NCBI GenBank assembly: GCA_947584535.1 | Contig: CANPWO010000001.1 | Location: 19,816-83,815 of the forward strand | Reading direction: 5' to 3' | Length of the DNA stretch: 64,000 nt | Source: an uncultured Clostridia bacterium | GTDB taxonomy: Bacteria > Bacillota > Clostridia > TANB77 > CAG-465 | In this document: in pieces, positions 27,250-59,049 of the stretch | Position numbering within the stretch: the first letter of the stretch is position 1 | Layout of the letters: each line of letters begins with the position of its first letter | Made by a program: the position numbers and the translations under genes | The notes under the pieces: generated by a model | The model's database searches: none | Seen by the model: the letters and a program-made list of their open reading frames with translations, nothing else | What the model was told of the DNA's origin: nothing

Positions 27250-27262
27250 ATTAATTTATCTC

Positions 27263-32232: not shown

Positions 32233-32421
32233 ATGGCAAAATGTGAAATATGTGATAAAGAAGTTGAGTTTTCTCTACAAGTGAGTCACTCACATAGAAG
32301 AACTGCTAGAACTTTTAAACCTAATGTTCAAAAAGTAAAAGTAAATGATAATGGTACAGTTAAAAAAATGAATGTATGCACTAAATGTTTAAAAAGTGGT
32401 AAAGTTCAAAGAGCTATATAA
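32233..32421 (+). CDS. rpmB: 50S ribosomal protein L28
   Basis: 62 aa. MAKCEICDK...VSHSHRRTARTFKPNVQK. Confidence 0.95.
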   Translation: MAKCEICDKEVEFSLQVSHSHRRTARTFKPNVQKVKVNDNGTVKKMNVCTKCLKSGKVQRAI

Positions 32422-33490: not shown

Positions 33491-35248
33491 CTAACTTATT
33501 GGAATTGTAATATAAAATGTTGTTCCTTCTCCCTGCTCTGTTTCAAAAGTTATATCTCCATTAAAGTTACCTTTTATTACTGAATAAGCTAAATATAGTC
33601 CAAGTCCAGTACCAAAAGTACCTTTAGTTGTTAATATATTTTTAAATATATATGGTGTTATACTTGGATCAAGACCACCAGCATAATCTGTTACTTTAAT
33701 TATAGCCTTCTTCTTAGGTGCTTTTTCAACAGTTACCTCTACTTTACCACCTTTATCTTCTCCATATGCTTGGGCAGCATTTACTACTAAATTTGTAAGT
33801 ACTTGTCCAAGTTTAGTAGGATCTCCATTTATCTCTAAGTCATCATTTATATTAACAATTACCTCTGAATTATTTTTTGCTACTTCGTGATAAGTTATTA
33901 TCTTTACATCATTTACAACTTCACTTATCTTAAATTTTACATTTGTATCTCCACCTAAGTTTCTAATTTGGTTTCTCATACTATTTACTATATTAATTAT
34001 TTTTGTAGCACAATTATCCATTCTTTGAAGTATCTCTTTTTCATCATCAGACCTATCTTTATCCATCTGATTTAACATTACAATTCCAGTTTTTATAGCA
34101 GATATTGGTGTGTTTATATCATGTGCTACTCCTCCTGCAAGCTCACCAATTGATACTAGTTGTCCTTGTTTTACGATTATATCCTGCTTTTCTTCTATCT
34201 GTTTTATATCCTCTTTATGCTGCGTTATATCTTTAAGTAGTAATAGTGTTCCTATATATTCTTTAGAATTTGATTTGGCCGAAATTGGATGTATATCTAC
34301 TTCAAAATATTTATCGTTTCCTTTTGCGACAAAGTGATATTCATCTGTTACTATCTCTCCTGTCTTACGAGTTCTTTCTATATTATCTTTTAATTTACTT
34401 AAATTAATTGTTTTGCTTTTTTCAATTATCTTAAATAAATTATCATCTTTTGACATAGCAAAAATATTTGAAAATTTTTCTTCAAATGTTTTGTTCATAT
34501 CTACAATAGTTCCGTCATCTGATATTACTACAAAAGCATCTGACATTGTATTTATAACTGTTTTAAATGCAACAGGCGTTATATTTAATGCTTTAAATTT
34601 AAATATCGATATAGAGCAACAAATTGAAGTAAATATAAACATAATCGGCATAACATATATAGTAACAGGTAGGATTTTAAATAATCCAATACAATTTGAA
34701 AGTGTAGGCATAGTCATTCCAATTACAATAAGCATTGTTTGCTTAGAAAAGAATCCTGACCTTTTTATACTTGTTATAATCATAAGTAACATAGAAATAA
34801 TAAATAGTGAATATGAATACAAAGCATACATAATTAATACAGGTCCATATACTGTTTCACTTAAATATATTGAATATTTTATATAAAATAAATGATGTAA
34901 ATCATTTGTAAATAAAAATGCTAAAAATATAAAAGGTAAAACATACAATATTTTTAATTTTTTAATATACTTTAAATTATTATTATATGCAAGAGATATA
35001 AAAAGCAAAAATATTGGTGAAAATGATGCTCCAATATATGTTATATAGTCAAAATAAATTGGGGGAATACTTGTATTATAAAACAATATTTGCAATATTA
35101 AACCAAATATATGTATAACTAAAGTAATATCAAAACAGAAAAAATATTTATATATATTATTACTACTATACTTCTCACTTAATCTATTTAACATAAATAA
35201 CATAATAATTAAAGATATTATTAAAGCACATAAATAAATAGTTAACAT
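33491..35248 (-). CDS. orphan sensor histidine kinase (multi-TM N-terminus, PAS-like, HisKA, HATPase_c)
   Basis: 585 aa. About 7 N-terminal TM helices. H-box LAGGVAHDINTPISAI, N-box LTNLVVNAAQA and G-boxes DYAGGL / GTGLGLYLA. No response regulator gene is adjacent. Confidence 0.85.
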   Translation of the reverse strand: MLTIYLCALIISLIIMLFMLNRLSEKYSSNNIYKYFFCFDITLVIHIFGLILQILFYNTSIPPIYFDYITYIGASFSPIFLLFISLAYNNNLKYIKKLKILYVLPFIFLAFLFTNDLHHLFYIKYSIYLSETVYGPVLIMYALYSYSLFIISMLLMIITSIKRSGFFSKQTMLIVIGMTMPTLSNCIGLFKILPVTIYVMPIMFIFTSICCSISIFKFKALNITPVAFKTVINTMSDAFVVISDDGTIVDMNKTFEEKFSNIFAMSKDDNLFKIIEKSKTINLSKLKDNIERTRKTGEIVTDEYHFVAKGNDKYFEVDIHPISAKSNSKEYIGTLLLLKDITQHKEDIKQIEEKQDIIVKQGQLVSIGELAGGVAHDINTPISAIKTGIVMLNQMDKDRSDDEKEILQRMDNCATKIINIVNSMRNQIRNLGGDTNVKFKISEVVNDVKIITYHEVAKNNSEVIVNINDDLEINGDPTKLGQVLTNLVVNAAQAYGEDKGGKVEVTVEKAPKKKAIIKVTDYAGGLDPSITPYIFKNILTTKGTFGTGLGLYLAYSVIKGNFNGDITFETEQGEGTTFYITIPIS

Positions 35249-35255
35249 ATAACAT

Positions 35256-38200
35256 TTACCCCCTTTTTATATCTTTTAAGAATCCTATTTGAATTAAGTA
35301 ATTTAAATATCTATGTATATATTCTTCATTAATTATAGGCCATTCAAATCCCATACTTTTTAATAATTTAATAGTAAAGTCAGATTTTACTATAATATTT
35401 GGTTTATATTCTATTTCTTTGTTTTTATTTACATCTAATATTATACCATTAATTTGATTTGCTTTTTCAGGATCTCTACTAAAATCTGTTATAAGCTTTG
35501 TCATTTCTTCTTTTGTAATTTCTTGTAAATTAATTCCAAAACTCTTAAAAGCTTTTAAAGCATCTACCATTTGTACGTGCTTATGGTTAAATATGTGAAA
35601 TACTGAATATTTACTATTAGTTTTTGAAAGAGTTATAACTGCTTTCGCTGCAAAATCAATAGGAGTAAACTCTAAATAAAAGTCAAGTAAATTAGTAGGT
35701 ATTACATTTAATGTTATAAATGTTTTTAATCGATTAGCGAATGCATTTTCTTCAACATTTGGTTGAAACTTACCATCATACATTCTTCCTGTTAAATTAC
35801 CCATTCTCATTATTTTACCATTAAGTTTATTCTCTGCAATAGCTTCTAAAACATATTTTTCTCCCATAAATTTTGTAAAAGCATATACATTATCTAAGTT
35901 TTGTTTAATATATAAATTTTCTTCACAATACTTTGTATTTGGTAATATATTTACTTGTTCTACTTGACCAGTTTCAAGTATATTACCTGATACACTAAGT
36001 GTAGATATATGAATTAATTTTTTATTATTTTCTATACAAAATTTTATAATATTTTTTACTGCATATTCATTTACTTTTCTAAATTTTTCTATATTTCCAA
36101 AATGTCTAACATTGGCTGCTGAGTTAATAATGGTATCAACTTTACTTTTTACAATTTCATAGTCTACTTCATTATTAATTATTTTAGAAGAATTCATATC
36201 TCCTTGTATTATAACTATTCTTTTTCCAAATTCATTATCATATTTATTTCCAAAGAAGAAATTTAATCTTTGTTTTAATCTTTGCTCTGCTGTTACCCCA
36301 TTTTTAGTTCTTACTAAACAATAAATTGTTCCGGTTTCTTGTTTCATATATTCATCTAAAATATGTGCACCTAAAAAACCTGTAACTCCAGTAAGTAGTA
36401 CATTTCCTAATTTTTCATTATTACTTAGGCTTTCATCTATTTGATTATTCTTTAACAAGTTATCAATATTAGTATAATCTAATGTTTCTATCTCTTCAGA
36501 TATAGAGATATTTTTTCTTGTTTTATCAAATATACCACCTAATTGATTTATAGTTGGATTTTTATACAGTTCATTATATGTTAGTGAAATATTTTTTGAA
36601 ATAGCTTTTGTAACTAAGTCAATTGCAAGTAAAGAGTCTCCTCCTATTTCAAAAAAATTATCATCAGGTAAAATATCCTTCCTTTTTAATACATCACAAA
36701 ATAAATCATATATTTCTTTGTAAATACCAACATAATTAGTTTCTTTTTTTTCTAATACATTATATCTTTTAGGTATTAATTTCTCTATTTCGTTTTTATC
36801 TACTTTTCCGTTTTTATTAAGAGGTATATTAGATATTTTAAATATATACTTTGGTATCATATAATATGGTAGCTCTTTTTTCAAAAAATCTTTTATTTCG
36901 TCTACGTCCAAATTTAATATTGATGTATAAAGTAATATAATATCTTTACTTTCCCCATTATTAATAACTGTTACATAACAATCATTAATCTTTTTATTTT
37001 TTAATGCTGTATTTTTTATCTCATCTAATTCTATTCTAAAGCCTCTTATTTTTATCTGACTATCAATTCTGCCTGCAAATTTTACATTTCCATCTTGCAA
37101 AAAATACGCATTATCTCCTGTTTTATATGCTTTCATAGAATTATCAAATGGATCTTTTATAAAACTTTTTGCAGTTCTTATATCATCTTTAAAATATCCT
37201 TTTGCAACTCCATCACCACTAACTAGTAATTCGCCTTCTACAAATATTGGAAGTAACCTATATTTTTTATCAACAATATAGCATTTACTATTTGAAATTG
37301 GTTTTCCAATAGGAATACTATCAGTATATTTACTCTTTATATTAAAGCAACAAGAAAAAGTTGTATTTTCAGTAGGTCCATAACCATTTATTAATTGAAC
37401 ATTTTTACATCTATCTAAAAGCTTATTTACATGTTTTACTGAAAGCACATCTCCACCTATTAATAAAACTCTAAGGTTATTAAACATAGATACATTATAA
37501 TCAACCATTTTATTAAATAAAGGTGCTGTTAACCACATTACAGATATTTTACTTGCTATAATAAAATCTTCAAATGTACTAGGGTTTAGTAACTTTTCTT
37601 TTGATATAAGATATAAAGTTAATCCATTTAATAAAGCTCCCCAAATTTCTAATGTTGATGCATCAAAACCTATTGAACCAGTTTGTACTATTCTGTCACC
37701 ATCTTTAAATGATATATAATTTGTATTTTTTACAAGTCTAACTATATTACGATTTGTAACTTCAACACCTTTAGGTTCTCCTGTTGTTCCAGATGTATAC
37801 ATTATATAAACACTATCTTCTACTTTGTGTGATTTTTCTATTCTTCTAGTTTCAGATGCACTGTTAAGAATATCAGCATTTATATTTTTAGCTCCTTTTA
37901 AACTGCATTCATCAACATCTGTTATAATTAAAGAACTAGAAGAATTATTTATAATATAATTTATTCTATCTTTAGGATATGTTTTTTCTAAAGGTAAATA
38001 AATACAATTTGCTTTTAAAATTCCCAAAATAGTTATTATAATTTCTATAGATTTATCCATAAAAATACTAACTACACTTTGATCTTTAAGCTTTAATATA
38101 TTTATTATATAATGTGCAACTTTATCTGCTTTTTCATTTAATTCTTTATAAGTCATAGTTTTATTTTCAAAAACAAGTGCAATATTATCAGGAGTTTTTC

Positions 38201-39590
38201 TAACTTGTTCTTCAAAAAGTTCTATAACTGTTTTATCTTTAGGATATTCTTTATATGTATCGTTAAATTCATTAAGTATTTTACTTTCTTCTTCCCTACT
38301 AATTATCCTAATATTTTCTATATCAATATCTTTATTTTCTATAGCGTTTTCTATTATAGCTAGTAATCTTGTATGCAAATATTCTATTTCTATATCTTTA
38401 TATAAATCTGTTTTATAATCATAATTTATATTTAAAATACCTGTATCATCCATATCCATAATATGAATTTGAAGTTCATCTTCTAAAGAATTTGAAAACG
38501 CCCAACTTGTACTATATTTTTTTTCATCAACTATATTTGTTCTAGCATTTTGATATGAAAGTACTATATTATACAAATTACCTTTTATATCACTGTTTTG
38601 TCTAATACTTTCTAAAGTTTTCATATATGGATATTTTTGATGTCTAAATACACTTAAAGTATCTCTTGAAATTTTTTGTGTTAAGCTTAGGAAATTTTCG
38701 CCTTCTTCTAACTTTATCCTAAGTGGCAAAGTCGATACAAACATTCCAAGCATTTTTTTCTCTTTAAAATTAGCTCTGTTAAGTACTGGTGTACCAAGTA
38801 CAAAATCATTTTTATCCTTTATCCTATAAATATATGTTGAAAGTGCAGATAAAAACAACGCATAAGGTGATAGTCTATTTTCCTTGCAATAACTAATAAT
38901 ATTACTATTTATTTTTTCATCAAGTCTTACAGAATATCTTTTTGCTTTGTGTGAAGTTAAAGGTGTCTGTTCTTTTATTGATACAGTTTCATTTATTCCA
39001 TTTAAATAATCTTTCCAAAATTCTTCATCTTTTATATATTTATCAGAGTTTTTATACTCATTTTCACTTGCTATATATTCTAAATAACTTGGTAAATTTT
39101 CTACTTCTACATCCTCATTATAACTTTCAAGTACTTGTATAATATACGTACCAATTTTACTACATGACCATGCATCAGAAATTATATGGTGTATCCTCAT
39201 AAAAATACTACCTGTATTATTTGTGTATTTTAATATTTTAAAATCATATAGTTTACTATTTAATGAAAAAAGAGATTGTGAAGCTAAGCCATCAATATAT
39301 TCTCTAATTTCCTCATTAGATAATGATGACATATCAACTACTTCAATCTCCTCATATTTGTATTCTTCATAATATTGCATATATTCATTTTCTTGTTCTA
39401 CAAGTCTTGTTCTCATAGCAATATTTTTTTCTATTACTTCATTTATTGCTTTTTTGCACAAATCTATATTAAAATCTTTTTGTATGTTAATTAATCCAGT
39501 TATAACATTAACTGAACTATTCTCATTAAATTTTTCCATAAATAATATATTTTGTTGTGGGAACGTTAAATTGTACATTTTATTATCCAT
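35256..39590 (-). CDS. single-module nonribosomal peptide synthetase, C-A-T-R (terminal thioester reductase)
   Basis: C domain HHIISDAWS. A-domain cores YIMYTSGTTGEPKGV, NGYGPTE, YKTGD, GRIDSQIKIRGFRIEL and NGKVD. Carrier FFEIGGDSLLAI. Reductase NAD(P) motif LLTGVTGFLGAHIL. Start placed at ATG 39590 (MDNKMYNLTFPQQ), after a GAGAGG RBS. Confidence 0.9.
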   Translation of the reverse strand: MDNKMYNLTFPQQNILFMEKFNENSSVNVITGLINIQKDFNIDLCKKAINEVIEKNIAMRTRLVEQENEYMQYYEEYKYEEIEVVDMSSLSNEEIREYIDGLASQSLFSLNSKLYDFKILKYTNNTGSIFMRIHHIISDAWSCSKIGTYIIQVLESYNEDVEVENLPSYLEYIASENEYKNSDKYIKDEEFWKDYLNGINETVSIKEQTPLTSHKAKRYSVRLDEKINSNIISYCKENRLSPYALFLSALSTYIYRIKDKNDFVLGTPVLNRANFKEKKMLGMFVSTLPLRIKLEEGENFLSLTQKISRDTLSVFRHQKYPYMKTLESIRQNSDIKGNLYNIVLSYQNARTNIVDEKKYSTSWAFSNSLEDELQIHIMDMDDTGILNINYDYKTDLYKDIEIEYLHTRLLAIIENAIENKDIDIENIRIISREEESKILNEFNDTYKEYPKDKTVIELFEEQVRKTPDNIALVFENKTMTYKELNEKADKVAHYIINILKLKDQSVVSIFMDKSIEIIITILGILKANCIYLPLEKTYPKDRINYIINNSSSSLIITDVDECSLKGAKNINADILNSASETRRIEKSHKVEDSVYIMYTSGTTGEPKGVEVTNRNIVRLVKNTNYISFKDGDRIVQTGSIGFDASTLEIWGALLNGLTLYLISKEKLLNPSTFEDFIIASKISVMWLTAPLFNKMVDYNVSMFNNLRVLLIGGDVLSVKHVNKLLDRCKNVQLINGYGPTENTTFSCCFNIKSKYTDSIPIGKPISNSKCYIVDKKYRLLPIFVEGELLVSGDGVAKGYFKDDIRTAKSFIKDPFDNSMKAYKTGDNAYFLQDGNVKFAGRIDSQIKIRGFRIELDEIKNTALKNKKINDCYVTVINNGESKDIILLYTSILNLDVDEIKDFLKKELPYYMIPKYIFKISNIPLNKNGKVDKNEIEKLIPKRYNVLEKKETNYVGIYKEIYDLFCDVLKRKDILPDDNFFEIGGDSLLAIDLVTKAISKNISLTYNELYKNPTINQLGGIFDKTRKNISISEEIETLDYTNIDNLLKNNQIDESLSNNEKLGNVLLTGVTGFLGAHILDEYMKQETGTIYCLVRTKNGVTAEQRLKQRLNFFFGNKYDNEFGKRIVIIQGDMNSSKIINNEVDYEIVKSKVDTIINSAANVRHFGNIEKFRKVNEYAVKNIIKFCIENNKKLIHISTLSVSGNILETGQVEQVNILPNTKYCEENLYIKQNLDNVYAFTKFMGEKYVLEAIAENKLNGKIMRMGNLTGRMYDGKFQPNVEENAFANRLKTFITLNVIPTNLLDFYLEFTPIDFAAKAVITLSKTNSKYSVFHIFNHKHVQMVDALKAFKSFGINLQEITKEEMTKLITDFSRDPEKANQINGIILDVNKNKEIEYKPNIIVKSDFTIKLLKSMGFEWPIINEEYIHRYLNYLIQIGFLKDIKRG

Positions 39591-39835
39591 TTTAAAACAA
39601 CCTCTCATATATAACTTCAACATCTTATTTAATATATAGTATATCAAAAACAAAAATTAAAAGCAATATGTAAAAGTATAATTTACAACGTTTTTTTACA
39701 TATTATAACTTATTTATACAAAACAAATTTACTATGTTACTTCTACACAATTTCTATATTTTTTTCTAATACAACTATTGACAAACAAAAAATACTATGT
39801 TATTATATATAAGTATTTAAAATTATTATTTACTT

Positions 39836-43683: not shown

Positions 43684-43822
43684 TTTAGTTTCCTCCTCTT
43701 TTAATTAAAATAAAGTTTGTAATAATTACTATTATATTATACCATATTTATGATATTATGTCAAATTATTCTTATGAAAAATGGCACTATTAAAATCAAT
43801 AGTACCAAGTTAAAATATTATA

Positions 43823-44323
43823 TTATGCTATAGGTATCATTATATTAGTCATATACTTACTTTCATCTTTTTCATTCCACCTACCACAAATAAATTGCTC
43901 CATAGGTGGTCCAACAATTTTTTTATTCTCTGCTTTTATAACCTTTAATAATCTACTATATGTTTGATAAATAGTATCATATTTTCCAATATGCTTTAAT
44001 GTAGCATATAAATTTATATCACATAATTTATTAATTTTTTTATCAAAGTATTCATTTACATATTTTTTATAGTCATCTTTACCTAAGTATATATTGTTAC
44101 ATAAATAATAACTATCACCTATTAACTTTAATTTTGTTATTTCATTTAAGCTGCGAATATCTGATAATAAAAGATTTTTGTCATTTATACACTTTTCAAA
44201 GTTTTTAATAATACCTATACTATCATCAAAGAAATAATCTACATTATCTTCTTTTTTATATTTAATATAATTTATATTTTTTAAACTGTCACTTGATTTT
44301 AAATTATAACTTTCCATATTCAT
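43823..44323 (-). CDS. hypothetical protein with a GyrI-like (small-molecule-binding) C-terminal half
   Basis: 166 aa. The tail YATLKHIGKYDTIYQTYSRLLKVIKAENKKIVGPPMEQFICGRWNEKDESKYMTNIMIPI resembles effector-binding GyrI-like domains. Confidence 0.45.
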   Translation of the reverse strand: MNMESYNLKSSDSLKNINYIKYKKEDNVDYFFDDSIGIIKNFEKCINDKNLLLSDIRSLNEITKLKLIGDSYYLCNNIYLGKDDYKKYVNEYFDKKINKLCDINLYATLKHIGKYDTIYQTYSRLLKVIKAENKKIVGPPMEQFICGRWNEKDESKYMTNIMIPIA

Positions 44324-44365
44324 TCCTTCTTTCTTGCCTTAAGTATATCATAACTCTACTTCTTT

Positions 44366-44391
44366 AAAAAGATAGGTGGTCACATATGGTA
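44366..44391 (-). promoter_or_regulatory. operator-like motif, copy 1 (upstream of the GyrI-like gene)
   Basis: AAAAAGATAGGTGGTCACATATGGTA matches 47075-47100 at 22 of 26 positions. It lies 43-68 nt upstream of the 44323 start codon and contains the GTGGTCAC imperfect palindrome. Confidence 0.45.
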
Positions 44392-44434
44392 TTAAAAATG
44401 GTATTAAAAAGAAATTTGTTTAATTTTCTAACTA

Positions 44435-45340
44435 TTAATTTTCTAAAATTAACTTTCCTCTCGATTTAATTGCATCTTTTAAAAGCTTAAAATATTTTAA
44501 ATATGAATTTTTATCCTTTGGAAAAGGACTATTCCAATTATGTATATCTGTAAATTCTTTTTTAATAGTATAATCTTCTTCAACATATGCTTGTAAATAA
44601 TTCTTTTTAACGAAATTTTCAAAGGTTTCATATTGTTTTAGCCATAATCTTGTGCTTTGTATAATATTTTCGTTTTTCTCATTTTTAGTCGTTAAATGTA
44701 GCAAATTTTTTAACGTATTATATGCTGCTTCCTCTTTATTTTCTTCTTTAAATACAAAATACTCATAAATTCTCATTAAAGTTAAATCAAACATATCATG
44801 TATCGCAGATTTTCCTGGACCGCTTCTACAAGAATTAAAGTCTCTTGGCACAGGAATATAATTTCCTATTGTATGATATAAACTAATAAGATCTACAATA
44901 TCCTTATATTCCTTTTCTTCTTTAAGAAAAATATTTTGAAAATTTGGATAATCTTCTATTTTACTCATCATATTATTCATGGAAATAGCACTTGGAAACT
45001 TCGCATTAGGACATTCAAATTTTTCTTTATACTTTTTCCACTCGTCTGGATTATTTTCTATATAAAAATGTGAAATTAAAGTTTGAACACTTGTCATTGT
45101 ATCTGAAAATACACTATTTTTATCTTTTTTACATGTCTTTAGATAAATATTATCCCATTTCTTTTTATATACTTCTTGAAGTTTATTACTATAGTTATCA
45201 GGATCTTTTTTGTTATTACTTGATAATCTATACTCTAAATATTTTTCAAATCGTTCTTTTTTTTGATATTTATCGTAACTCTCTTTATTTATCTTTTCAT
45301 TTCCCAATGTATCATTTGTAAAATCATATTCTATATCCAT
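44435..45340 (-). CDS. hypothetical protein (301 aa), last gene of the WYL operon
   Basis: Its start codon abuts the WYL gene stop (45340/45341). Conserved-looking core YHTIGNYIPVPRDFNSCRSGPGKSAIHDMFDLTL. No family recognised. Confidence 0.6.
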   Translation of the reverse strand: MDIEYDFTNDTLGNEKINKESYDKYQKKERFEKYLEYRLSSNNKKDPDNYSNKLQEVYKKKWDNIYLKTCKKDKNSVFSDTMTSVQTLISHFYIENNPDEWKKYKEKFECPNAKFPSAISMNNMMSKIEDYPNFQNIFLKEEKEYKDIVDLISLYHTIGNYIPVPRDFNSCRSGPGKSAIHDMFDLTLMRIYEYFVFKEENKEEAAYNTLKNLLHLTTKNEKNENIIQSTRLWLKQYETFENFVKKNYLQAYVEEDYTIKKEFTDIHNWNSPFPKDKNSYLKYFKLLKDAIKSRGKLILEN

Positions 45341-46315
45341 TTATTTAACTCCCTTAATTACTCTTTTTATATCTTTTATTAAACTTTCTGGTGATAATAC
45401 TTTAACAGTTTCTATATTTCTTAAGCACCAATATCTAAACCCTTTAATAGTTGTATAAAATGATGCATAAAATTTATTTTTGTCTATTTTTCTAAATTTA
45501 ACGTCTTTACCATATAATTCAATTACATTATCAAGCATTGACATATCACACTCTATTTCTACCTTCTCCGTATCACCTGATAACATGTTAACATTACTTT
45601 TTATAAAGAAATCTATTTCATTATCATCAAACTTACTAGATATTTTTTCATTAGTAATATTTATATTCTTCATTCTATCTAACCTACGGCTATATAGCTC
45701 TTTTTTATCTTCATCTAAACATATTAGATAAAATTTTTGCAAAGCATAAATAAGTTTATATGGTGACGTTTTTACTCTTTTTTCTAATACATATTCTAGA
45801 TTTTCATTTAACTCATATTTATAATAATCAAATGATATTTTCTTTTTATAAAATATAGCTTCATTAATATCTTCTATATTCTTTATAATTTCTTGATTAT
45901 CTGTTCTTGTATTTTTAATAGATGGCTTGTAATTTTTATACTTATCTCTTTCGTAAATATCCATCATATTAATACATTTGTTAATAATTGAATATGACAT
46001 CTTTTCAGGTATAAAATTAGAATATGCAAAAGTATTAAGTATTGCTGATAACTCGCCTTTTTCAAATTCATACTCAGGGTCTTGCCTTATAAAATAACCT
46101 TTTTTATTTTCTTCATACTTTTCTATATCATAGTTAAATTTTTCTATTAATAAATTAATATTTCTTCTAACAGTTCTTGAATCAATTGAGACATTATATT
46201 CTTTTTTTATTAAATCTCTTATTTTATTAGAAGATATTGCATAATCTTCATTACTATACTTTTTTAAAATATTTAAAATATACAATATATTACCATTTTT
46301 CTCATAAAGTTCCAT
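45341..46315 (-). CDS. HTH plus WYL-domain transcriptional regulator
   Basis: 324 aa. N-terminal winged-HTH (ISSNKIRDLIKKEYNVSIDSRTVRRNINLL). Central WYL-like domain (ISFDYYKY...PYKLIYALQKFYLICLDEDKKELYSRRLDRMKNINI). Confidence 0.75.
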   Translation of the reverse strand: MELYEKNGNILYILNILKKYSNEDYAISSNKIRDLIKKEYNVSIDSRTVRRNINLLIEKFNYDIEKYEENKKGYFIRQDPEYEFEKGELSAILNTFAYSNFIPEKMSYSIINKCINMMDIYERDKYKNYKPSIKNTRTDNQEIIKNIEDINEAIFYKKKISFDYYKYELNENLEYVLEKRVKTSPYKLIYALQKFYLICLDEDKKELYSRRLDRMKNINITNEKISSKFDDNEIDFFIKSNVNMLSGDTEKVEIECDMSMLDNVIELYGKDVKFRKIDKNKFYASFYTTIKGFRYWCLRNIETVKVLSPESLIKDIKRVIKGVK

Positions 46316-46316
46316 A

Positions 46317-47033
46317 TTACACCTCTACTATCTGCTTTTTTTCATTGATTAAAGTATTGCAATCATCATAACTTTTCCCAATTAAAAATCTATTATAACC
46401 AATTATTTTTAAATATTTATATTCTGGCTTAATTATCTCTTTTTTTAATTTTAAATCATACACACCATATAAATCATTATTTACTACTTTTACTTGATAT
46501 ATATTATCTGGATATGTACTGCAAAATTCATTTTCTACCATTAATTCTAAATCAGGTGATGCTACTAGAAAGTCATATTCAAATGGAACAATAACATTAT
46601 TATTCTTATCTATAACTCCAGCTTTATATGTTTTATTATCTGCAACTCTAAAATATGTACCAGTACTGTCCATTGCCTCCATATTTATATATTTAATTGG
46701 TATTATAACATTGCCTTTTTTATTTATTAAACCATGTTTTAACAAAACTATTTTTTCTTTACTTTCAATTTCTTTATATTCATTTGGTAACATTACTTGA
46801 TAATTATCACCACATTCTATAAAAGGATATATATACTTAGGCTCAATTATTACATTTCCATTTTTATCTACTAATCCCCATTTACCTTCCATACCATACA
46901 CTTCATCTATATTTGTATGAGCGAAGTAACACACCTCTGTTATTTCATTTGGACTTTTAGTGCTTACCATATAATTACCATCTTTTAATTCATATATTTG
47001 CTTATATCTTTTTTCTAATTCTTCTTTATTCAT
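46317..47033 (-). CDS. WG-repeat (KWG) beta-propeller-like protein
   Basis: Repeats GKWGLVDKNGNVIIEPKY, HGLINKKGNVIIPIKY, KAGVIDKNNNVIVPFEY and LYGVYDLKLKKEIIKPEY. Start placed at ATG 47033, after an AAGGAG RBS. The stop lies 1 nt from the WYL start. Confidence 0.7.
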   Translation of the reverse strand: MNKEELEKRYKQIYELKDGNYMVSTKSPNEITEVCYFAHTNIDEVYGMEGKWGLVDKNGNVIIEPKYIYPFIECGDNYQVMLPNEYKEIESKEKIVLLKHGLINKKGNVIIPIKYINMEAMDSTGTYFRVADNKTYKAGVIDKNNNVIVPFEYDFLVASPDLELMVENEFCSTYPDNIYQVKVVNNDLYGVYDLKLKKEIIKPEYKYLKIIGYNRFLIGKSYDDCNTLINEKKQIVEV

Positions 47034-47074
47034 ATTTACTCCTTTAATTATATTATACATTAAAATATAAAATA

Positions 47075-47100
47075 AAAAAGATATGTGGTCATATAGTGTA
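47075..47100 (-). promoter_or_regulatory. operator-like motif, copy 2 (upstream of the WG-repeat/WYL operon)
   Basis: AAAAAGATATGTGGTCATATAGTGTA. On the minus strand it sits about 20 nt upstream of a TGTATAAT extended -10 element. Confidence 0.45.
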
Positions 47101-47223
47101 CCAATTTACTAAAATTATATTATAAATATTATTATTTCTATACTATTATACTATAAATTACTCTTTTTATAGTTTAAGTGGATACTATTATGAAAATAGT
47201 ACCCACCCTCTTAAATTAAATAA

Positions 47224-51998: not shown

Positions 51999-54782
51999 TG
52001 AAGCGTCGCCAAACCAACTTGTATGTTCAGTTCCGGAAGTGGATGTCTCCCATATTGCTTCTCCTTTTCTTTTACTGTTTGTTGCATCGTTATAATTTAT
52101 ATTTTCATCATAATTATCACCTTCGTATACAGATACGTATTTTGTTGAATTTCCGTTGTTATTTTTACTTGTTTCGTCTACTAGTGATTGTCCGTATTTT
52201 GTTAAATTACTAGTTCCACCTTTTTGATATCCTGCTGTAAATTCAGATGCTCCTCCACTCATATCATATATTCCGTATATGTTTCCTGTTGTTGATGCTT
52301 TCTGTCCTTCTGGTGTGTTATATGTATTTGATGAGCTTGCTCCATATCCTGTTTTTGTTCCACTACTATTAACTTTGTTTTGCTGTACCTCTACTCCATT
52401 TCTTCCATATTTACTTTGTGCTAGGTAAGCTACTGCTCCCCATTCACTATTCTTCATTTGATGTGTGTCTACTTTTGAAGAAGAAAATCCGTATGGATTA
52501 CCACTTTGGTTTAGATTTTTACATAGTGTAAATACTTCTCCTATTTTGATATCTCCATATGAACTTTGTCCTGGTACAAATTTTGGATATGTTTGTTTTG
52601 ATTGACTTTCTATTCCAGTTCCTTTGCTTGCTTCGTATTTTGCTACCCATATTCCTGTTAACTCTTCGTCCCATCCACCATTTGCAAATTGTGTGTCTGT
52701 TTCATCTGTGAATGCTGAATGTACTATATAATCTTCTGGTAAGTCTTGCTCAGCTTCATTTTCGTCTTCATACTTATCACTTGTTCCTTTTAAGAATATT
52801 ATATCTATTTGATTTGCTGTACTTGTTCCAGGATTTGTTATCTTGTATGCATATCTTGGTATCCACACCCACTGGCTTCCATCTGCTGTTTCTGCATTTG
52901 CCCAATGGCTTGTTGTATTATCTGTTCCAAATTCTTCTTTGCTTTCTTTGTATGCATACCATTCTGGGTCACTTGTTGTTGTTTTTTCTGATGTTCCATC
53001 TTCTTTAAATTTTATTGCCTTCATTCCAGGCATTATATTTGGTGGATTTACTTTTGATACTCCATCTTCTGTATTTCCATTTGTTCCATATTCTCCTTTT
53101 GCAATTTCTGCAAGTGTTGCAGTTTTATCATTTACTACTATCTCATATCCCTCAGGTACATTTACTTCAGCTTGTTCTTTAAATTGTGTACTTCCTGTTA
53201 CTGCTCCATCATAAAAGTTTGCTATAAATGTATCAGTTCCATTATCTACTGCTGTATTTGTTGCTGTTATTGTTGGCTTAGTTGTATCTACTGGTGCACT
53301 CTCATTTCCTATTATTAATGTCTTACTTGCATCTGCTCCTGAATTGTATACGCAATTATTTCCTGTTACTGCTCCATCTCTTATATTTATTGTTCCTTTT
53401 GCAAATTCTATTGCATTTCCATTTGTTGCTTCTATTTTTCCATTTGATACTAATGTTCCATTTGTTCTTATTCCATTAGCTCCTTTTATAGAACTATATT
53501 CTGAAATAATTACACTTGCTTCTGTCGAATTACTTTTTATTACATAGCCACTATCTCCTGTTGAAGTTATTATTCCAGCGCTTATATTAACAGTTCCTGT
53601 ATTATTTATTACTGGTTCATTTGAAGAAGAGTTTATAAGCGCTACTAAAAAACTTGAACTACCTCCACCACCAATAGGGCTACCTGGCGCATAACCTCCG
53701 ATATTTACTTCGTCTACATTATTTATTACTGAACCTTTTGCATTAGAATTTATTGTGATATGCCCTATACTAATATTACCATTATTTTCTATTGCATCTG
53801 AATTAGAATTCAATGTAATCGATGACGTATCATCACTATTAAAACTAAAATATCCAATATTTTTTATTGCAACAGTATTATCAGATTTCGTATCTATTGT
53901 TGCATTGCCATATATATAAAATTTTCCATTACTATCATTATCTACTGCTAAATTTGATGTTGAGCTTATATTTGTATTTGCAATTGAGATTTCAGAAGTA
54001 TTGTATATTGTAGGGTTATTATTAGACTCTGATGTTATTTTTCCACCTGATATTATACACTTTCCAGTTTCATTATATACTGCCGAATTTAATGTTGAGC
54101 TTATATTTGTTGTATTATTTATTATTATTTGACTATCTTTATATGTAGAACTATCACAATTATTATATATTGTAGGACTACTATCTGACTGTGATGTTAT
54201 TTCTCCACCAGATATTGTACACTTTCCAGCTTCATTATTATATATTGCTGAATTTGATGTTGAACTTACATTTGCATTTGTTATTATGACTTCGTCATTA
54301 TTATATATCGTAGGATTATTATTAGACTCTGATGTTATTTCTCCACCAGTTATTTCACACTTTCCAGCTTCATTATATACTGCCGAATTCAATGTTGAAC
54401 TTATATTTGTTGTACCATTTATTAACATTTGATTATATATTAAACCATTACAATTATTATATATTGTAGGACTACTATCTGACTGTGATGTTATTGTTCC
54501 ACCAGTTATTGTGCACTTTCCAAATTCATCATTATATACTGCTGAATTTAATGTTGAACTTACATTTGCATTTGTTATTATGACTTCGCCATTATTATAT
54601 ATTGTAGGGTTATTATTAGACTCTGATGTTATTTCTCCACCAGTTATTTCACACTTTCCATCCTCATTATATATTGCTGAATTTGATGTTGAGTTTATAT
54701 TTGCATTTGTTATTGTGATTTCGGAATCACTATATATTATTGTAGGGCTACTATCTGACTGTGATGTTATCGTTCCACCGTT
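51852..54782 (-). CDS. C-terminal portion of a split giant surface protein: beta-helix-like Asn/Ser/Thr repeats plus an FGE-sulfatase / C-type-lectin-like domain
   Basis: The frame is open from 54782. The first ATG is at 54428. Repeats are of the type NxSSTxNSAxYNxxGKCxIxGGxITSxSxxxPTIYN. The C-terminal part carries WVWIPRYAYKI, IWVAKYE, YGIYDMSGGASEFT and LRGGSYNN...GSFRAV. Confidence 0.8.
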   Translation of the reverse strand, partial: NGGTITSQSDSSPTIIYSDSEITITNANINSTSNSAIYNEDGKCEITGGEITSESNNNPTIYNNGEVIITNANVSSTLNSAVYNDEFGKCTITGGTITSQSDSSPTIYNNCNGLIYNQMLINGTTNISSTLNSAVYNEAGKCEITGGEITSESNNNPTIYNNDEVIITNANVSSTSNSAIYNNEAGKCTISGGEITSQSDSSPTIYNNCDSSTYKDSQIIINNTTNISSTLNSAVYNETGKCIISGGKITSESNNNPTIYNTSEISIANTNISSTSNLAVDNDSNGKFYIYGNATIDTKSDNTVAIKNIGYFSFNSDDTSSITLNSNSDAIENNGNISIGHITINSNAKGSVINNVDEVNIGGYAPGSPIGGGGSSSFLVALINSSSNEPVINNTGTVNISAGIITSTGDSGYVIKSNSTEASVIISEYSSIKGANGIRTNGTLVSNGKIEATNGNAIEFAKGTINIRDGAVTGNNCVYNSGADASKTLIIGNESAPVDTTKPTITATNTAVDNGTDTFIANFYDGAVTGSTQFKEQAEVNVPEGYEIVVNDKTATLAEIAKGEYGTNGNTEDGVSKVNPPNIMPGMKAIKFKEDGTSEKTTTSDPEWYAYKESKEEFGTDNTTSHWANAETADGSQWVWIPRYAYKITNPGTSTANQIDIIFLKGTSDKYEDENEAEQDLPEDYIVHSAFTDETDTQFANGGWDEELTGIWVAKYEASKGTGIESQSKQTYPKFVPGQSSYGDIKIGEVFTLCKNLNQSGNPYGFSSSKVDTHQMKNSEWGAVAYLAQSKYGRNGVEVQQNKVNSSGTKTGYGASSSNTYNTPEGQKASTTGNIYGIYDMSGGASEFTAGYQKGGTSNLTKYGQSLVDETSKNNNGNSTKYVSVYEGDNYDENINYNDATNSKRKGEAIWETSTSGTEHTSWFGDASYFSYTLAPFLLRGGSYNNSGASAGLFYFFPDFGYANSFGSFRAVWVSL

Positions 54783-54790
54783 CTATACTT
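53890..54790 (-). repeat. in-frame tandem coding repeats (about 280-295-nt super-repeat, each made of two ~37-50-aa sub-repeats)
   Basis: TATTGTAGGACTACTATCTGACTGTGATGTTAT recurs near 54168, 54463 and 54739. TAGACTCTGATGTTATTTCTCCACC recurs near 54026, 54316 and 54617. Confidence 0.8.
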
Positions 54791-57700
54791 AACTTATTAT
54801 CATAAATTCCAGCCTCTATTGCACTCTCTTTATTTGTTGAAATAGATAAATTATACAAACTAAATAAATTATTTGTACCATAACTTTCTAAACTTACTGC
54901 ACCAGTATTAGTAGAAATTTCTTTAAATTCCATTTCTCCATTTTCAATCTTTATATTACAATTAGAAGCTTGATTCACTATAGCCATAATAGAAGCATTA
55001 TACAATATCTTGTGATTACATAAATCTATATCGTAATTTTTATCATCTTCAAATAATTCAATAAAACTACCATCATTAATAGTCGTATCATGTAATAATT
55101 CCAATTTAAATTCACCATCTTCATAAGTAACATACTCACAATAATAAATCAATGCTTCATCAAATGTATAAAAACTTTCCATTTCTTCTGAACTATTTAT
55201 ATCAACAATTCTTGCTACTGGTTTTATATGTTCTAATGTTGCTGTATTTTCATTTACAACTATTTCATACATATCTGGAACAACTACTGTTTCTTTATTT
55301 TTAAACTGTATTTTTCCTGTTACCGAACCATCATAAAAATTCACCTTAAATTTATCATTTCCATTGTCTACACCTGTTTCTGTTACATTTATTATTGGTG
55401 CTTCTTTCTTTACTCCTTCATCACTATTATTTCCAAAAGTTAATGTTTTTTCTACGTCATTTCCTGAATTAAATACTCCATTTACTCCTGTTATACTTCC
55501 TCCTGTTATTTCTATTTCTCCTTTTGCAAATTCTATTGCATTTTGCTTTAAACTTTTTATTGTCCCTTCTGACATTGTTATTTTTCCATTGTTTTTTATT
55601 GCATTATAACCCTCTACATCTCCTCCTGTTATATTTACATTTCCTTGTGTTGAACTATTATTTATTCCGTGACTATTATTCTCATCATTTCCTGTTGATT
55701 TTATTGTTCCATTTGCTACAGTTAATGTTTTTGTATTATCTATTGCATCTTGATTTGATGTTATTATTCCACTTGTATTTATTGTTAATGTATTTGCATT
55801 ATATATTGCATTTTCACCTGTACTTGATATAGTTCCTTCTCCTACTATCTCCATATATCCTTCATTTGTTATTGTTGCTTTATCTCCTTGGTCATTTTTT
55901 ACTGTATATGTTCCTAGATTTAGTTTTGCATATTTGTTATTTGCTAGTGTTGCTGTTTTATTTGTTATATCTTTTAATACTACTACTTCATTATATGAGC
56001 TTGAACTTCCAGTTACAGCATTAAATGCTTCTTGAAGTGTTGCATATTTTATTGCACCTATTTGTGCTACTGCTTCTACTACATTTACTGTATATTCTGC
56101 TTTCATTGCTTCATTATCTTTTGATGTTACTGTTATTTTTGCTTGACCTACTCCTTTTATTGTTACTGTTGCATTTAATTCGTTACCTTCTACTGTTGCT
56201 ACTCCTTCATTATCTGTTGTCCATGTTACTTCTTTATTTGATGCATTCTCTGGTTCTACTGTTGCTGTAAGTTGTATTGTTTTTGTATCTTCAATAAACA
56301 CAGTATCTTCTGTTTTATCTAATGTTACTTTTGTTACATCTATCTTCTTTGTTTTTGCTGTTATTTCTCCTTTTGTATATTTATGACCTGTTGATATTGT
56401 TACTGTTACTTCTATATCATATGTTGTATATGGTTCTAGTCCTTTTATTGTATATGTTCCACCATATGATTGTTTACCTTCCCCTATATCAGATGTTGTT
56501 AATGTTTCTGTTTTCCAATTTTGTTGTGTTCCGTTTTCTTTGTATTTTATTTCTATACTGCTTAATGTTCCAAATAATGTTGATGTTGTTATTTCTACTG
56601 GTATTGTATCTGATGTTGTTGTGTCTGGTGTAGCTTCAAGTGATATTGGTTCTATTACATGTACTTGACATGTATCACTTGCCTGAGGATTATCTTGTGA
56701 TGTTACTGTTACTGTTGTGTCTCCTATTTGTTTTGTTGTTACTGTCCCTCCATCTACTTCTGCTATATCTGTTTGACTACTTTGCCATGTTAAACTTTTA
56801 TTTGTTGCGTTTGTTGGGTCTATTGTTGCTGTTAATTCTCCTGTATCTCCTAAATATACATTTAATGGTTTTGGACTTAATGTTACGTTATTTACTGGTA
56901 TTTTCAGTGTTGTACCAGTTAAATCAGTTATTGATACTTTATGCCCATTTGCATATTGACTTTCACTTGCTATTTCTACTTCTACTTGTATATTATATTT
57001 TGTTACATCTTTTAAGTTATCTATTGTTATTATTCCTTCATATTCTGTTTGTCCTGTTACATCTTGTGTTACTTCTTTTTTTGACCAAGTTGCTTCATCT
57101 TCTCTTTTATACATTATTGTTATCTTAGATAATGTTCCATGTTTAGTTGATGTTGTTACTTGTACTGGTATTGTGCTTGATGTTGTTGCACTTACGCTTG
57201 CTTTTAATGATATTGGTTCTAATACTTTTACACTACATTGTGCTTGTTTTTCCTTATCATCATTTGCTTTTGCTGTTATTGTTGTATTACCTACATCTTT
57301 TGTTGTTATTACTCCTTCGCTTACTATTGCCTTGTTCTGATCACTACTTTCCCATATTACTGTTTTATCTGATGCATCTTCTGGCAATACTGTTGCTGTT
57401 AATTTTCCTGTTTCTCCTAAATACACATTTAATGTATCTGGTGCTACTGATATGCTTGTTACTGGTATCCATTTTGGTTCTGCTTGTAGTGTTACTTCCT
57501 TTTGACATGATTTATCCTTTAATGTTGCTACTACTTTTATTTCAAATATCTTTCTTGGTTCTAATCCATTTATTACATAGTCATTTGTGTTATATTCTGT
57601 TTTATTTACGTCTATTGATGGATCTGTTATCCAATCTTCTTTACCTTTTTCTCTATGTTTTATTTCTATCTTATCTATCTGATTATATGTTGTATTTGCT

Positions 57701-58992
57701 GATATTTTTAATGTTGCTTTTGTTCCTCTTGCTTCTGTTACTTCTGCACTTAACTCTAATGGGTCTAATACTTCTACTTGACAAGTTACACTTTTTGTTA
57801 AATATTTTGCTGTTATTGTTGCACTTCCTACTTCTTTTGCTGTTATATTTCCTTCTTGGTCTACTCCTACTTTTGCATCATCACTTGTTTCCCATGTTAA
57901 TGTTCCTTCTCTTACATTTCCATTTTCTACTATTGCTTGTAATTTACCTTCTTGTCCTTTTCTTAATTGCAATGTTTGCTTATCTAGTGTTATTTTTGTT
58001 TTATCTATTACACTTACACTACATACTTCTGATGTTAAGTTTCCATATTCTCCTTTTGCTATTATCTTTGCTGTTCCTATATCTCTTCCTGTTACTTCTC
58101 CTGTTTGTGTTAAATCTACTGCATTATCTGGGCTTTGACTTTCTACTTCCCATGATACATCTTGGTTATCTGCTGTCTCAGGTGTTATTATTGCTCTTAA
58201 CTTAGCTGGCTCATCTAAGCCAAGTACTACACTACTTGGGTCTATTGTTATTTTTTCTACTTTTATATAATCTCCTACATTTACTTTTATTGTTACTTTC
58301 TTTTCTATTTCTGTTCCATCTTCTGCTGTTACTTTTGCTGTTAGTATTGCTACTCCATCACTTATTCCTTGTATATCTACTGTGTTTTCTTTTTCTTCTA
58401 TTATTCTTGCTTTTGTTGGCTCATCTATTTCAAAATCTACTTGACTATCTATATCTGGTAATACTGTTGCATATATTCTTTCTTTTTGACTTATCTTTAA
58501 ACTTACTTCCTCTGTACTTAATACTAGTACTTCTCCTTCATTTAATACATTTATCCCTACTTCTTTTGCCCATTCTTGTTGCTCTTCACTTAAAAAATTA
58601 TCTCTGTTATCTATATATATCTTCCCATCTGCTACAAATACTTTTCCTTCGTATTCTGTTCCTACTATACTTGGCATGATAGAAGCGAGACTGTTATTTT
58701 CACCCTCGTTTACTATTTTTCCTTTATATATTATATTTCCTTCTTTTGTTATATTCATCTTATCTGTATAGTATCCTTTTGTATTTGATACATTATCAAA
58801 CAAGGCACTTGAGTAAAAATTATTATACTCATCTTTTAATGCTGTTAAATCTGTTTTTACCTTAGTTTCATTTGCTCTTGATATTGGATTATTACCTGTT
58901 ATTGACAAGATTACAGCGCTCGCCAATATAATCATTACTATTATTGTTATAATCAATACTAGTAATGATATTCCATTATTTCTTTTTTTCAT
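54751..58992 (-). CDS. N-terminal portion of the split giant surface protein: pilin-like signal/anchor, Big_2 and Fn3-like array, beta-helix-like module
   Basis: MKKRNNGISLLVLIITIIVMIILASAVILSITGNNP resembles a prepilin-type N-terminus that lacks Glu5. There are at least 5 Big_2-like units (for example VTSISVAPDTLNVYLGETGKLTATVLPEDASDKTVIWESSD) alternating with Fn3-like units. Start placed at ATG 58992, after a GAGGAAAAG RBS. Confidence 0.8.
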   Translation of the reverse strand: MKKRNNGISLLVLIITIIVMIILASAVILSITGNNPISRANETKVKTDLTALKDEYNNFYSSALFDNVSNTKGYYTDKMNITKEGNIIYKGKIVNEGENNSLASIMPSIVGTEYEGKVFVADGKIYIDNRDNFLSEEQQEWAKEVGINVLNEGEVLVLSTEEVSLKISQKERIYATVLPDIDSQVDFEIDEPTKARIIEEKENTVDIQGISDGVAILTAKVTAEDGTEIEKKVTIKVNVGDYIKVEKITIDPSSVVLGLDEPAKLRAIITPETADNQDVSWEVESQSPDNAVDLTQTGEVTGRDIGTAKIIAKGEYGNLTSEVCSVSVIDKTKITLDKQTLQLRKGQEGKLQAIVENGNVREGTLTWETSDDAKVGVDQEGNITAKEVGSATITAKYLTKSVTCQVEVLDPLELSAEVTEARGTKATLKISANTTYNQIDKIEIKHREKGKEDWITDPSIDVNKTEYNTNDYVINGLEPRKIFEIKVVATLKDKSCQKEVTLQAEPKWIPVTSISVAPDTLNVYLGETGKLTATVLPEDASDKTVIWESSDQNKAIVSEGVITTKDVGNTTITAKANDDKEKQAQCSVKVLEPISLKASVSATTSSTIPVQVTTSTKHGTLSKITIMYKREDEATWSKKEVTQDVTGQTEYEGIITIDNLKDVTKYNIQVEVEIASESQYANGHKVSITDLTGTTLKIPVNNVTLSPKPLNVYLGDTGELTATIDPTNATNKSLTWQSSQTDIAEVDGGTVTTKQIGDTTVTVTSQDNPQASDTCQVHVIEPISLEATPDTTTSDTIPVEITTSTLFGTLSSIEIKYKENGTQQNWKTETLTTSDIGEGKQSYGGTYTIKGLEPYTTYDIEVTVTISTGHKYTKGEITAKTKKIDVTKVTLDKTEDTVFIEDTKTIQLTATVEPENASNKEVTWTTDNEGVATVEGNELNATVTIKGVGQAKITVTSKDNEAMKAEYTVNVVEAVAQIGAIKYATLQEAFNAVTGSSSSYNEVVVLKDITNKTATLANNKYAKLNLGTYTVKNDQGDKATITNEGYMEIVGEGTISSTGENAIYNANTLTINTSGIITSNQDAIDNTKTLTVANGTIKSTGNDENNSHGINNSSTQGNVNITGGDVEGYNAIKNNGKITMSEGTIKSLKQNAIEFAKGEIEITGGSITGVNGVFNSGNDVEKTLTFGNNSDEGVKKEAPIINVTETGVDNGNDKFKVNFYDGSVTGKIQFKNKETVVVPDMYEIVVNENTATLEHIKPVARIVDINSSEEMESFYTFDEALIYYCEYVTYEDGEFKLELLHDTTINDGSFIELFEDDKNYDIDLCNHKILYNASIMAIVNQASNCNIKIENGEMEFKEISTNTGAVSLESYGTNNLFSLYNLSISTNKESAIEAGIYDNKLSIERWNDNITVR

Positions 58993-59049
58993 GAATATCA
59001 CTTTTCCTCTCAACACACATATATAATTACATATTTAATATTTAAATAA

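Follow-up and report, generated by a model that had tools for sequence, protein, structure and literature searches.

A mobile WYL-DUF6994 cassette with its own promoter box in a gut Clostridia genome, possibly a conflict module responsive to single-stranded DNA

A 64,000-nucleotide stretch of the genome of an uncultured Clostridia bacterium (contig CANPWO010000001.1, positions 19,816 to 83,815; referred to as the window) carries a self-contained cassette of 3.4 kb (about 43.78–47.20 kb) between prkC and a LemA gene. The source of the sequence is a rabbit-gut metagenome, and all sequencing runs containing it are DNA metagenomes. The cassette combines a WYL-domain regulator with a protein of the DUF6994 family and has two predicted promoters. 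It is regarded as secure that these genes represent a conserved, mobile unit with its own conserved promoter box, and that a neighbouring GyrI-like gene is included in this unit. Its role is proposed more cautiously: a nuclease-type conflict module (anti-phage or anti-mobile-element defence) inducible by single-stranded DNA (ssDNA) is given a little less than an even chance. The features of the cassette are as follows.

47184..47203, minus strand: terminator-like hairpin GGTACTATTttcatAATAGT just 3' of the prkC stop codon; left boundary and copy 1 of the bracketing repeat.
47075..47100, minus strand: predicted operator-like box O1, core TACACTATATGACCA (47086..47100) plus extension CATATCTTTTT; 5' of the WG-WYL-DUF6994 operon.
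47052..47057, minus strand: predicted -10 hexamer TATAAT of promoter P1, read from sequence and spacing.
46317..47033, minus strand: WG-repeat (WG_beta_rep) protein, 238 aa from ATG 47033, Pfam 56.2 bits; the reading frame is open back to 47060.
45341..46315, minus strand: wHTH-WYL-WCX regulator, 324 aa, assigned by Pfam WYL, PADLOC WYL profiles, AlphaFold2 and Foldseek.
44435..45340, minus strand: DUF6994-family protein (Pfam PF22507), 301 aa, putative metal-dependent nuclease-like enzyme.
44366..44391, minus strand: predicted operator-like box O2, core TACCATATGTGACCA (44377..44391) plus extension CCTATCTTTTT; 5' of the GyrI-like gene.
44342..44350, minus strand: predicted extended -10 TGaTATACT of promoter P2, read from sequence.
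43823..44323, minus strand: GyrI-like domain protein (Pfam GyrI-like), 166 aa (164 aa from ATG 44317); second transcription unit of the cassette.
43782..43807, minus strand: intrinsic-terminator-like hairpin GGTACTATTgattttAATAGT with a T-run, 3' of the GyrI-like gene; right boundary and copy 2 of the bracketing repeat.

The first-pass annotation, made from the letters of the window, described three open reading frames (ORFs) packed end to end as a tightly coupled unit with an HTH-WYL regulator. All three are present on the minus strand, and the coupling can be read from their junctions. The WG-repeat/WYL junction (46319..46313) is GTG TAA t ATG: the stop codon ends at 46317 and the WYL gene starts with ATG 46315 after a gap of 1 nt, preceded by the Shine-Dalgarno sequence AGAGGTG. 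The WYL/DUF6994 junction (45346..45338) is AAA TAA ATG, where the stop codon ends at 45341 and ATG 45340 follows with a gap of 0 nt; the Shine-Dalgarno sequence AAGGGAG is located 9 nt upstream of this ATG. Similarly tight or overlapping WYL/DUF6994 junctions are found in related loci (L001, L002, L017, L029, L038, L047 and L048). The WG-repeat gene probably starts at ATG 47033 (Shine-Dalgarno AAAGGAG, 47045..47039) and not at 47060, since ATG 47060 overlaps the predicted -10 hexamer (47057..47052) and the closest homologue (L053) has 239 aa. For the GyrI-like gene ATG 44317 is probably the start rather than ATG 44323, because the Shine-Dalgarno sequence abuts the latter.

The linkage of the regulator to DUF6994 is kept across distant genomes. 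Altogether 57 loci were gathered from genomes and metagenomes, and their ORFs were scored with hidden Markov models. There were 35 distinct DUF6994-like genes (at most 90% identity), 30 of them with informative flanks. The first-pass annotation had proposed an analysis of neighbourhood conservation, and this analysis found a winged helix-turn-helix (wHTH)-WYL-WCX gene within 3 kb of the DUF6994-like gene at 23 of the 30 informative distinct loci, adjacent or overlapping at 16 of the 30. Two loci, L053 and L054, were retrieved via the regulator; without them the linkage amounts to 21 of 28. In 7 of the 30 loci DUF6994 is present with no WYL gene adjacent. The linkage persists at only 20–30% protein identity to the proteins of the window, and in the distant partners of about 400 aa Pfam confirms WYL and usually WCX.

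Around this pair the gene content varies. The window belongs to a low-GC branch, where a WG-repeat protein is encoded in the window, L001, L018, L051, L053, L054 and L055, and a GyrI-like protein ("a141" family) in the window, L002, L018, L033, L047, L048, L051, L053, L054 and L055. A PD-(D/E)XK nuclease gene follows DUF6994 in L021, L047, L054 and L055, and the small proteins a120, a311 and SepF-like a63 occur at several loci of the same branch, the SepF likeness being weak. In the branch of Lachnospiraceae type the third gene often encodes a calcineurin-like metallophosphoesterase (10 loci). The order of genes is WG-WYL-DUF in the window, L053 and L054 and WYL-DUF-WG in L001 and L018; the retention of the gene set despite the shuffled order argues for functional coupling. 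The tight coupling described by the first-pass annotation is upheld for the three genes of the window, and the WYL-DUF6994 linkage is conserved, but the WG-repeat gene, absent from many cassettes, is not a fixed member of it.

Several loci show further features. One or more lambda-phosphatase-like phosphoesterases of calcineurin type (about 235 aa, MHYVxGDIHG start) accompany the WYL-DUF6994 pair of the Lachnospiraceae-type branch in L004, L009, L012, L014, L015, L029, L030, L035 and L049; in L004 the phosphoesterase gene is located between WYL and DUF6994, behind its own box. The closest genome-derived DUF6994 homologue (50% identity; L008 7563-8885, from a Bacilli metagenome-assembled genome) has an extra N-terminal domain of about 145 aa, is not preceded by a WYL regulator and is followed by a 228-aa protein without a Pfam match. 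In L038 (9507-11684) a protein of 726 aa begins with a second DUF6994-like domain; its gene follows the WYL-DUF6994 pair at a distance of 3 kb on the downstream side. In L055 the WYL protein is 72% identical and the place of DUF6994 behind it is taken by a 267-aa protein (7975-8778) with neither HTIGN/FN motifs nor a Pfam match; this protein could possibly be an effector replacement. A truncated DUF6994-like protein, with the motifs kept, is found in this place in L056.

The second line of evidence is provided by the promoter regions. Both intergenic regions of the cassette share TGACCAC[A/C]TATCTTTTT exactly (a 17-nt motif with 16 specified positions), and zero-mismatch matches to it in the 64 kb are only those two. 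Related loci carry its 5' part (consensus TACAYTnTRTGWCCA, 15 nt) before the WYL operon, and a second copy precedes their second transcription unit. The exact window box TGACCACNTATC had no match in the other loci, the conserved part being the 5' half TACAYTnTRTGWCC. A position weight matrix (PWM), trained on ten sites from other loci only and scanned over 128,000 positions, ranked O1 first and O2 second (17.3 and 14.9 bits), both on the gene strand and directly 5' of the two units. These scores alone are not extreme, as random windows reach 13.2 ± 2.2 bits; it is hard to explain by chance that both matches fall on the gene strand in two short promoter regions. A third PWM match (57073..57087) was rejected as a chance occurrence: it is antisense inside the gene of a 1421-aa surface protein and has no -10 at the right spacing.

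The distance from TGWCC to the -10 hexamer is 29–33 nt, mostly 30 nt, at more than 20 sites of about 12 loci; in the window it is 29 nt for O1 and 30 nt for O2. The box (15–20 bp) accordingly occupies about -58 to -38, on the upstream side of the -35 position, and the -35 positions themselves are poor in the window (CTTTTT and TTTTTA). No local inverted repeats were reported at either window box. In L054 a near-identical box, TGTGACCAggTATCTTTTTA, precedes that locus's own GyrI-like gene. A variant box, TTCTTTTTnTGACCA, is located 30 nt before TATAAT in front of the WG-repeat genes that lie downstream of DUF6994 in L001 (8907), L018 (8710) and L051 (1011), under their own predicted promoters. 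The cassette is therefore a small regulon in which two or three promoters carry a box. The first-pass annotation mentioned the GyrI-like gene together with the block; the place of this gene in the module is justified because the box layout is shared at both promoters and repeated in about 12 related loci, and its homologues recur in related cassettes. The box would serve as the operator of the WYL regulator.

According to its sequence and predicted structure, the 324-aa regulator can be assigned to the wHTH-WYL-WCX class, as a new member of a well-known family. Pfam WYL covers residues 146–218 (36.5 bits), and a PADLOC WYL profile covers residues 136–321. The AlphaFold2 model (predicted local distance difference test, pLDDT, 82) shows helices in the N-domain and the linker, a WYL domain rich in beta structure and a C-domain of alpha/beta type. 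Homologues number 1,086 at E <= 1e-5, and about 25 clusters are 80–88% identical. All 32 significant Foldseek matches of the model are WYL regulators; among solved WYL proteins the E values are 2e-11 for DriD, 4.5e-11 for PafBC, 3e-7 for BrxR, 4e-7 for WYL1 and 1e-6 for CapW, with full-length alignments (330–345 columns) to DriD, PafBC, BrxR and CapW. Against PDB sequences a broad profile (A4) matches DriD and PafC only, not BrxR or CapW, and a narrow-clade WYL profile (A5) matches nothing. Among the WYL switches named by the first-pass annotation, BrxR and CapW are thus more distant from the regulator than PafBC, which it resembles together with DriD.

DriD of Caulobacter crescentus and PafBC of Actinobacteria are thus the best matches by both fold and profile, although sequence identity is only 12–14%. 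According to the profile alignment, the ssDNA contacts of DriD Y168, Y192 and R207-LDRM (PMC9186387) are kept as Y164, Y196 and R211-LDRM. Three of six key DriD residues are identical in the regulator. Of the others, R176 is replaced conservatively by K179, whereas R178 corresponds to V181 (next to R180) and R204 to Y208. By analogy, the regulator could respond to ssDNA, which is sensed by both activator and repressor WYL regulators (PMC11662680).

The minimal site of DriD is located at -55 to -36, at a fixed distance from the -10 box, and promoters of its regulon lack a good -35 box (PMC9186387; PMC13004042). The window promoters show the same arrangement: a fixed box-to--10 distance, a box abutting the -35 position and a weak -35, whereas the box sequence itself is unrelated to the DriD site ATACGTCCGTTTCTGGCGCA. 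DriD controls the endonuclease gene bapE and the division inhibitor didA (PMC13004042); the corresponding product here is DUF6994, a putative nuclease. In contrast to the dispersed chromosomal damage regulons of DriD and PafBC in Proteobacteria and Actinobacteria, the system described here is a small mosaic cassette of low-GC gut Firmicutes. An activator rather than a repressor is tentatively favoured, because the box occupies a DriD-like position, the -35 boxes are poor and the palindromic operators of BrxR and CapW do not fit.

The 301-aa protein was left without a family by the first-pass annotation, wrongly, as it matches Pfam DUF6994 (PF22507) above the gathering threshold (35.5 bits, cutoff 27). 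The match is limited to positions 146–224 of 226 (the C-terminal third of the model), and the protein is therefore placed in a divergent branch of DUF6994; the L008 homologue spans positions 8–226. A word-indexed search gave 20 relatives, and an exhaustive profile search gave 1,177 clusters at E <= 1e-3 and 636 at E <= 1e-10, mostly matched over the full length. DUF6994 is above threshold in 64 of 70 diverse full-length relatives, and no other Pfam family recurs among them. No meaningful PDB match came from sequence or profile searches with the protein, and searches against PHROGs, NCBIfam and PADLOC gave no match.

Seven residues are invariant across diverse members (Y37, G159, N160, N169, D182, W233 and R294), and a further set is at least 90% conserved in the family (D6, D46, D48, Y58, W62, T81, S84, H156, P163, P165, R172 and D185). 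These include what looks like an enzyme-like polar cluster (D46/D48, H156-x3-N160-x8-N169, R172, D182/D185). The AlphaFold2 model (pLDDT 92.5; predicted template-modelling score 0.90) is mainly helical and contains one small sheet of three strands; the H156-x3-N160-x8-N169 pattern is flanked by a strand and a short helix, and acidic residues adjoin it. DUF6994 is a named family, and its overall fold, as modelled, appears to be novel and without a structural neighbour.

The only paper found to mention DUF6994 is the 2024 Pfam paper, which ascribes to it a minimal beta-beta-alpha core like that of HNH and type IV restriction enzymes, non-canonical catalytic residues with two invariant aspartates, and alanine at the catalytic His position (PMC11701544). 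The H156-x3-N160-x8-N169 pattern appears compatible with such an HNH-like view (PMC11701544), and the two invariant aspartates of the Pfam description match conserved aspartates here (D46/D48, D182/D185). On the other hand, a histidine, H156, is at least 90% conserved in the present alignment; it may or may not correspond to the position described as alanine. Following the proposal of the Pfam curators, DUF6994 is read here as a putative nuclease that would depend on metal and have a degenerate site of the His-Me-finger kind.

The accessory proteins of the window are less constant. WG_beta_rep (PF14903) is found in three stretches of the WG-repeat protein (56.2 bits, cutoff 25.6); its homologues are 62–70% identical in L001, L018 and L053, and L051 and L054 were recognized by E-value. 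The WG protein of L053 is 70% identical to that of the window, and the GyrI-like protein 42%. The 166-aa protein barely passes the GyrI-like (PF06445) threshold (26.6 bits, cutoff 26) and only with residues 105-165: its C-terminal 60 residues match the GyrI-like domain of SbmC/Rob/BmrR effector-domain proteins, while the N-terminal 100 residues are outside the match and no DNA-binding domain is fused. Its match in PDB is the EcmrR effector domain (E 4e-6). With the same cutoff of 26, the homologues of L051 (28.8) and L054 (26.3) pass and that of L053 (22.4) does not; these three loci carry GyrI-like homologues, and the linked "a141" family is found in L002, L018, L033, L047, L048 and L055.

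The divergence, the boundaries and the neighbours of the unit suggest a conflict-like evolution. Relative to the window, the WYL and DUF6994 proteins are 88% and 29% identical in L053, 84% and 28% in L033, 80% and 43% in L002, and 46% and 45% in L001; judged from these sequences, regulator and enzyme diverge independently. The GC content of the cassette is 21–25% versus 28–33% in the flanks (prkC and LemA). The position of the block between prkC and LemA, pointed out by the first-pass annotation, looks like an insertion: the hairpin GGTACTATT-N(4-8)-AATAGT occurs twice in the 64 kb in the same orientation (0.00 expected from shuffles), directly after prkC and directly after the GyrI-like gene. 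Such bracketing is the expected signature of insertion at the prkC terminator, and the hairpins look like a duplicated insertion target or a recombination site. In a scan for terminator-like sites in 42.0–49.5 kb the hairpin after the GyrI-like gene was the only one. A contig of a different gut metagenome (run X5) connects 43728 with 47111 through 22 unrelated bases, skipping 43729..47110 (3,382 nt). It could be an empty site in a related strain, and is only a hint, as the shorter flank is 25 nt and many spurious joints occur alongside.

In related loci large serine recombinases adjoin the cassettes of L018 and L054, a type IV secretion system coupling protein is encoded near that of L047, a conjugative-element backbone with ArdA is nearby in L006, and a Bsp6I-type restriction-modification pair neighbours L048. 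At 11821-13989 of L006, AlkZ-like glycosylase genes are found together with another, different WYL regulator. The peptidase M50-TsaD gene pair (4574-6354 in L004) is directly downstream of the L004 cassette; in the window (26248-27916) this pair is about 17 kb away from the cassette, which suggests different insertion points in related chromosomes. A link of the cassette to the prkC/PP2C signalling genes was rejected, as these are nearby in none of the related loci.

The following mechanism could be proposed. The WYL regulator would bind the box at about -58 to -38, the position used by ssDNA-activated DriD. Binding to the WYL domain of ssDNA from DNA damage or from phage or mobile-element replication would switch on both promoters; derepression is the alternative to activation by the regulator. 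The constant output would be DUF6994, a 300-aa, mostly helical enzyme and putative metal-dependent nuclease, and the GyrI-like and WG-repeat proteins would act as variable accessories, which could bind a ligand or the target. Defence is preferred as the interpretation because the gene content is mosaic, the enzyme turns over independently, a PD-(D/E)XK nuclease has been added in some cassettes, mobile-element genes are among the neighbours and an insertion signature is present.

Several observations weigh against this proposal. In PADLOC-DB v2 DUF6994, the WG-repeat and GyrI-like proteins, a120, a141, a311 and a63 match nothing. No homologues were found in viral-contig, annotated-phage and plasmid collections, which gives no support to an origin from phages or plasmids. 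The faster divergence of DUF6994 could reflect weaker constraint. The nuclease assignment is drawn from a short motif and from predicted models as interpreted by another group; among the 70 DUF6994 members there is no recurrent Pfam family of HNH type, and the Foldseek search of the AlphaFold model, advised by the first-pass annotation, found no fold neighbour (nothing at E < 1 in PDB or BFVD and no HNH/His-Me nuclease). Binding of the box by the regulator is deduced only from their co-occurrence, and the only dyad in the conserved block is a 3-bp ACA...TGT. No paper linking DUF6994 with WYL regulators was found in the searchable literature. Finally, a DNA-damage response would account equally well for the close likeness to DriD/PafBC, for the GyrI-like gene and for the small SepF-like genes. 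In PADLOC-DB v2 the regulator matches generic WYL models only, and the accessory PD-(D/E)XK protein matches the DruK and Cas4 models weakly.

Such a response is the first alternative to be considered. A regulon like those of DriD and PafBC would answer DNA damage or genotoxins without an immune role: ssDNA at lesions would activate the WYL protein, which would then induce a DNA-processing or repair enzyme (DUF6994) together with the GyrI-like protein. This is the main rival, though less probable than defence. The regulator is closest to DriD and PafBC by profile and fold, and box position and fixed -10 spacing match DriD-activated promoters. DriD itself controls the bapE endonuclease and didA (PMC13004042). 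The GyrI-like protein would then protect gyrase or bind a small molecule, and the small SepF-like proteins of sister cassettes could delay division as DidA does under DriD; both kinds of protein, the SepF likeness being weak, recur in the cassettes. SbmC of E. coli is SOS-induced. DNA-repair genes stand beside some cassettes: an Ogt-like methyltransferase in L056/L057 (6354-6869), a MutY-like glycosylase in L054 (11309-12325) and RecU in L055 (5010-5594). However, these neighbours vary by locus and may be coincidental. Damage regulons usually have a fixed locus and scattered targets, whereas every recognisable box is located here inside the cassette, which is patchy, mosaic, often accompanied by mobile-element genes and, in the window, apparently inserted.

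A defence cassette could also be governed by a repressor of the BrxR/CapW type, which would silence a toxic effector at both promoters until ssDNA of the infection releases it. BrxR and CapW repress BREX, BrxU, CBASS and other defence islands, and they share with the regulator the wHTH-WYL-WCX architecture (Foldseek E about 1e-6 to 1e-7) and the leading place of the regulator gene in the operon; tight coupling with the regulator gene first would fit autoregulation of a dangerous product. BrxR likewise has two boxes per island, at its own and at a downstream promoter, and about half of its homologues adjoin defence systems (PMC9122601). The BrxR-controlled pEFER island includes the type IV nuclease BrxU. 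The ligand of these repressors is ssDNA, and CapW, which binds a palindrome, is released by it (PMC11662680). Nevertheless, repression of this kind is unlikely. The operators of BrxR consist of inverted repeats located 3' of the -10 box (PMC9122601) and the CapW operator is palindromic, overlapping or downstream of the core promoter, while the box of the window is upstream of -35 and has no evident dyad. Foldseek E values are about four orders weaker than for DriD, DriD and PafC are within reach of sequence profiles whereas BrxR and CapW are not, and the genes controlled here belong to no catalogued defence system.

A toxin-antitoxin-like addiction pair, in which a DUF6994 toxin checked by the upstream DNA-binding protein would stabilise a mobile element, is very improbable: it agrees with the two-gene core of overlapping or abutting frames, the DNA-binding partner being first, and with the frequent mobile-element contexts, but the regulator, a 324-aa ligand-sensing protein of three domains, is unlike the small and labile antitoxins, such pairs do not have a second regulated promoter with several accessory genes, and 7 of the 30 informative loci have DUF6994 without an adjacent WYL gene.

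As far as the searchable literature shows, the combination of WYL with DUF6994, the predicted operator and the two-promoter layout are undescribed. It is more doubtful whether WYL and DUF6994, with GyrI-like, WG-repeat, PD-(D/E)XK or metallophosphoesterase accessories, form an undescribed family of ssDNA-triggered immune systems of gut Firmicutes, with an activating regulator and a His-Me-like nuclease effector of a new fold. WYL regulators are emerging as a common ssDNA-sensing switch of DNA-damage responses and anti-phage systems, and DUF6994 (about 1,200 clusters) gains a regulatory context, a testable predicted operator and a few putative catalytic residues. Should DUF6994 prove to be an effector nuclease, the cassette would represent a new defence family common in gut Clostridia, Lachnospiraceae and Erysipelotrichales. 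Its activator-type WYL regulator would travel with its target genes, which to our knowledge is unusual and would blur the division into damage activators and defence repressors. A portable damage-response unit would be unusual as well, since such regulons are normally chromosomally fixed.

Other genes of the window complete the picture. Pfam confirms LemA and, upstream, PrkC (kinase and three PASTA domains) and PP2C. The gene rpmB (L28) was found at 32233..32421 with an adjoining SpoVM-like peptide, in agreement with the position of rpmB and spoVM (32.2–32.5 kb) given by the first-pass annotation. Between sporulation genes and rpmB a single-module protein resembling nonribosomal peptide synthetases (C-A-T-reductase, 1465 aa) is encoded at 35256-39653 on the minus strand, adjoined by a gene of a seven-transmembrane PAS histidine kinase (33491-35248, minus strand). 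The repeat-rich surface-type protein of 1421 aa is encoded at 54751-59016, also on the minus strand; the long leucine-rich ORFs antisense to it (up to 352 aa) are codon-composition artefacts.

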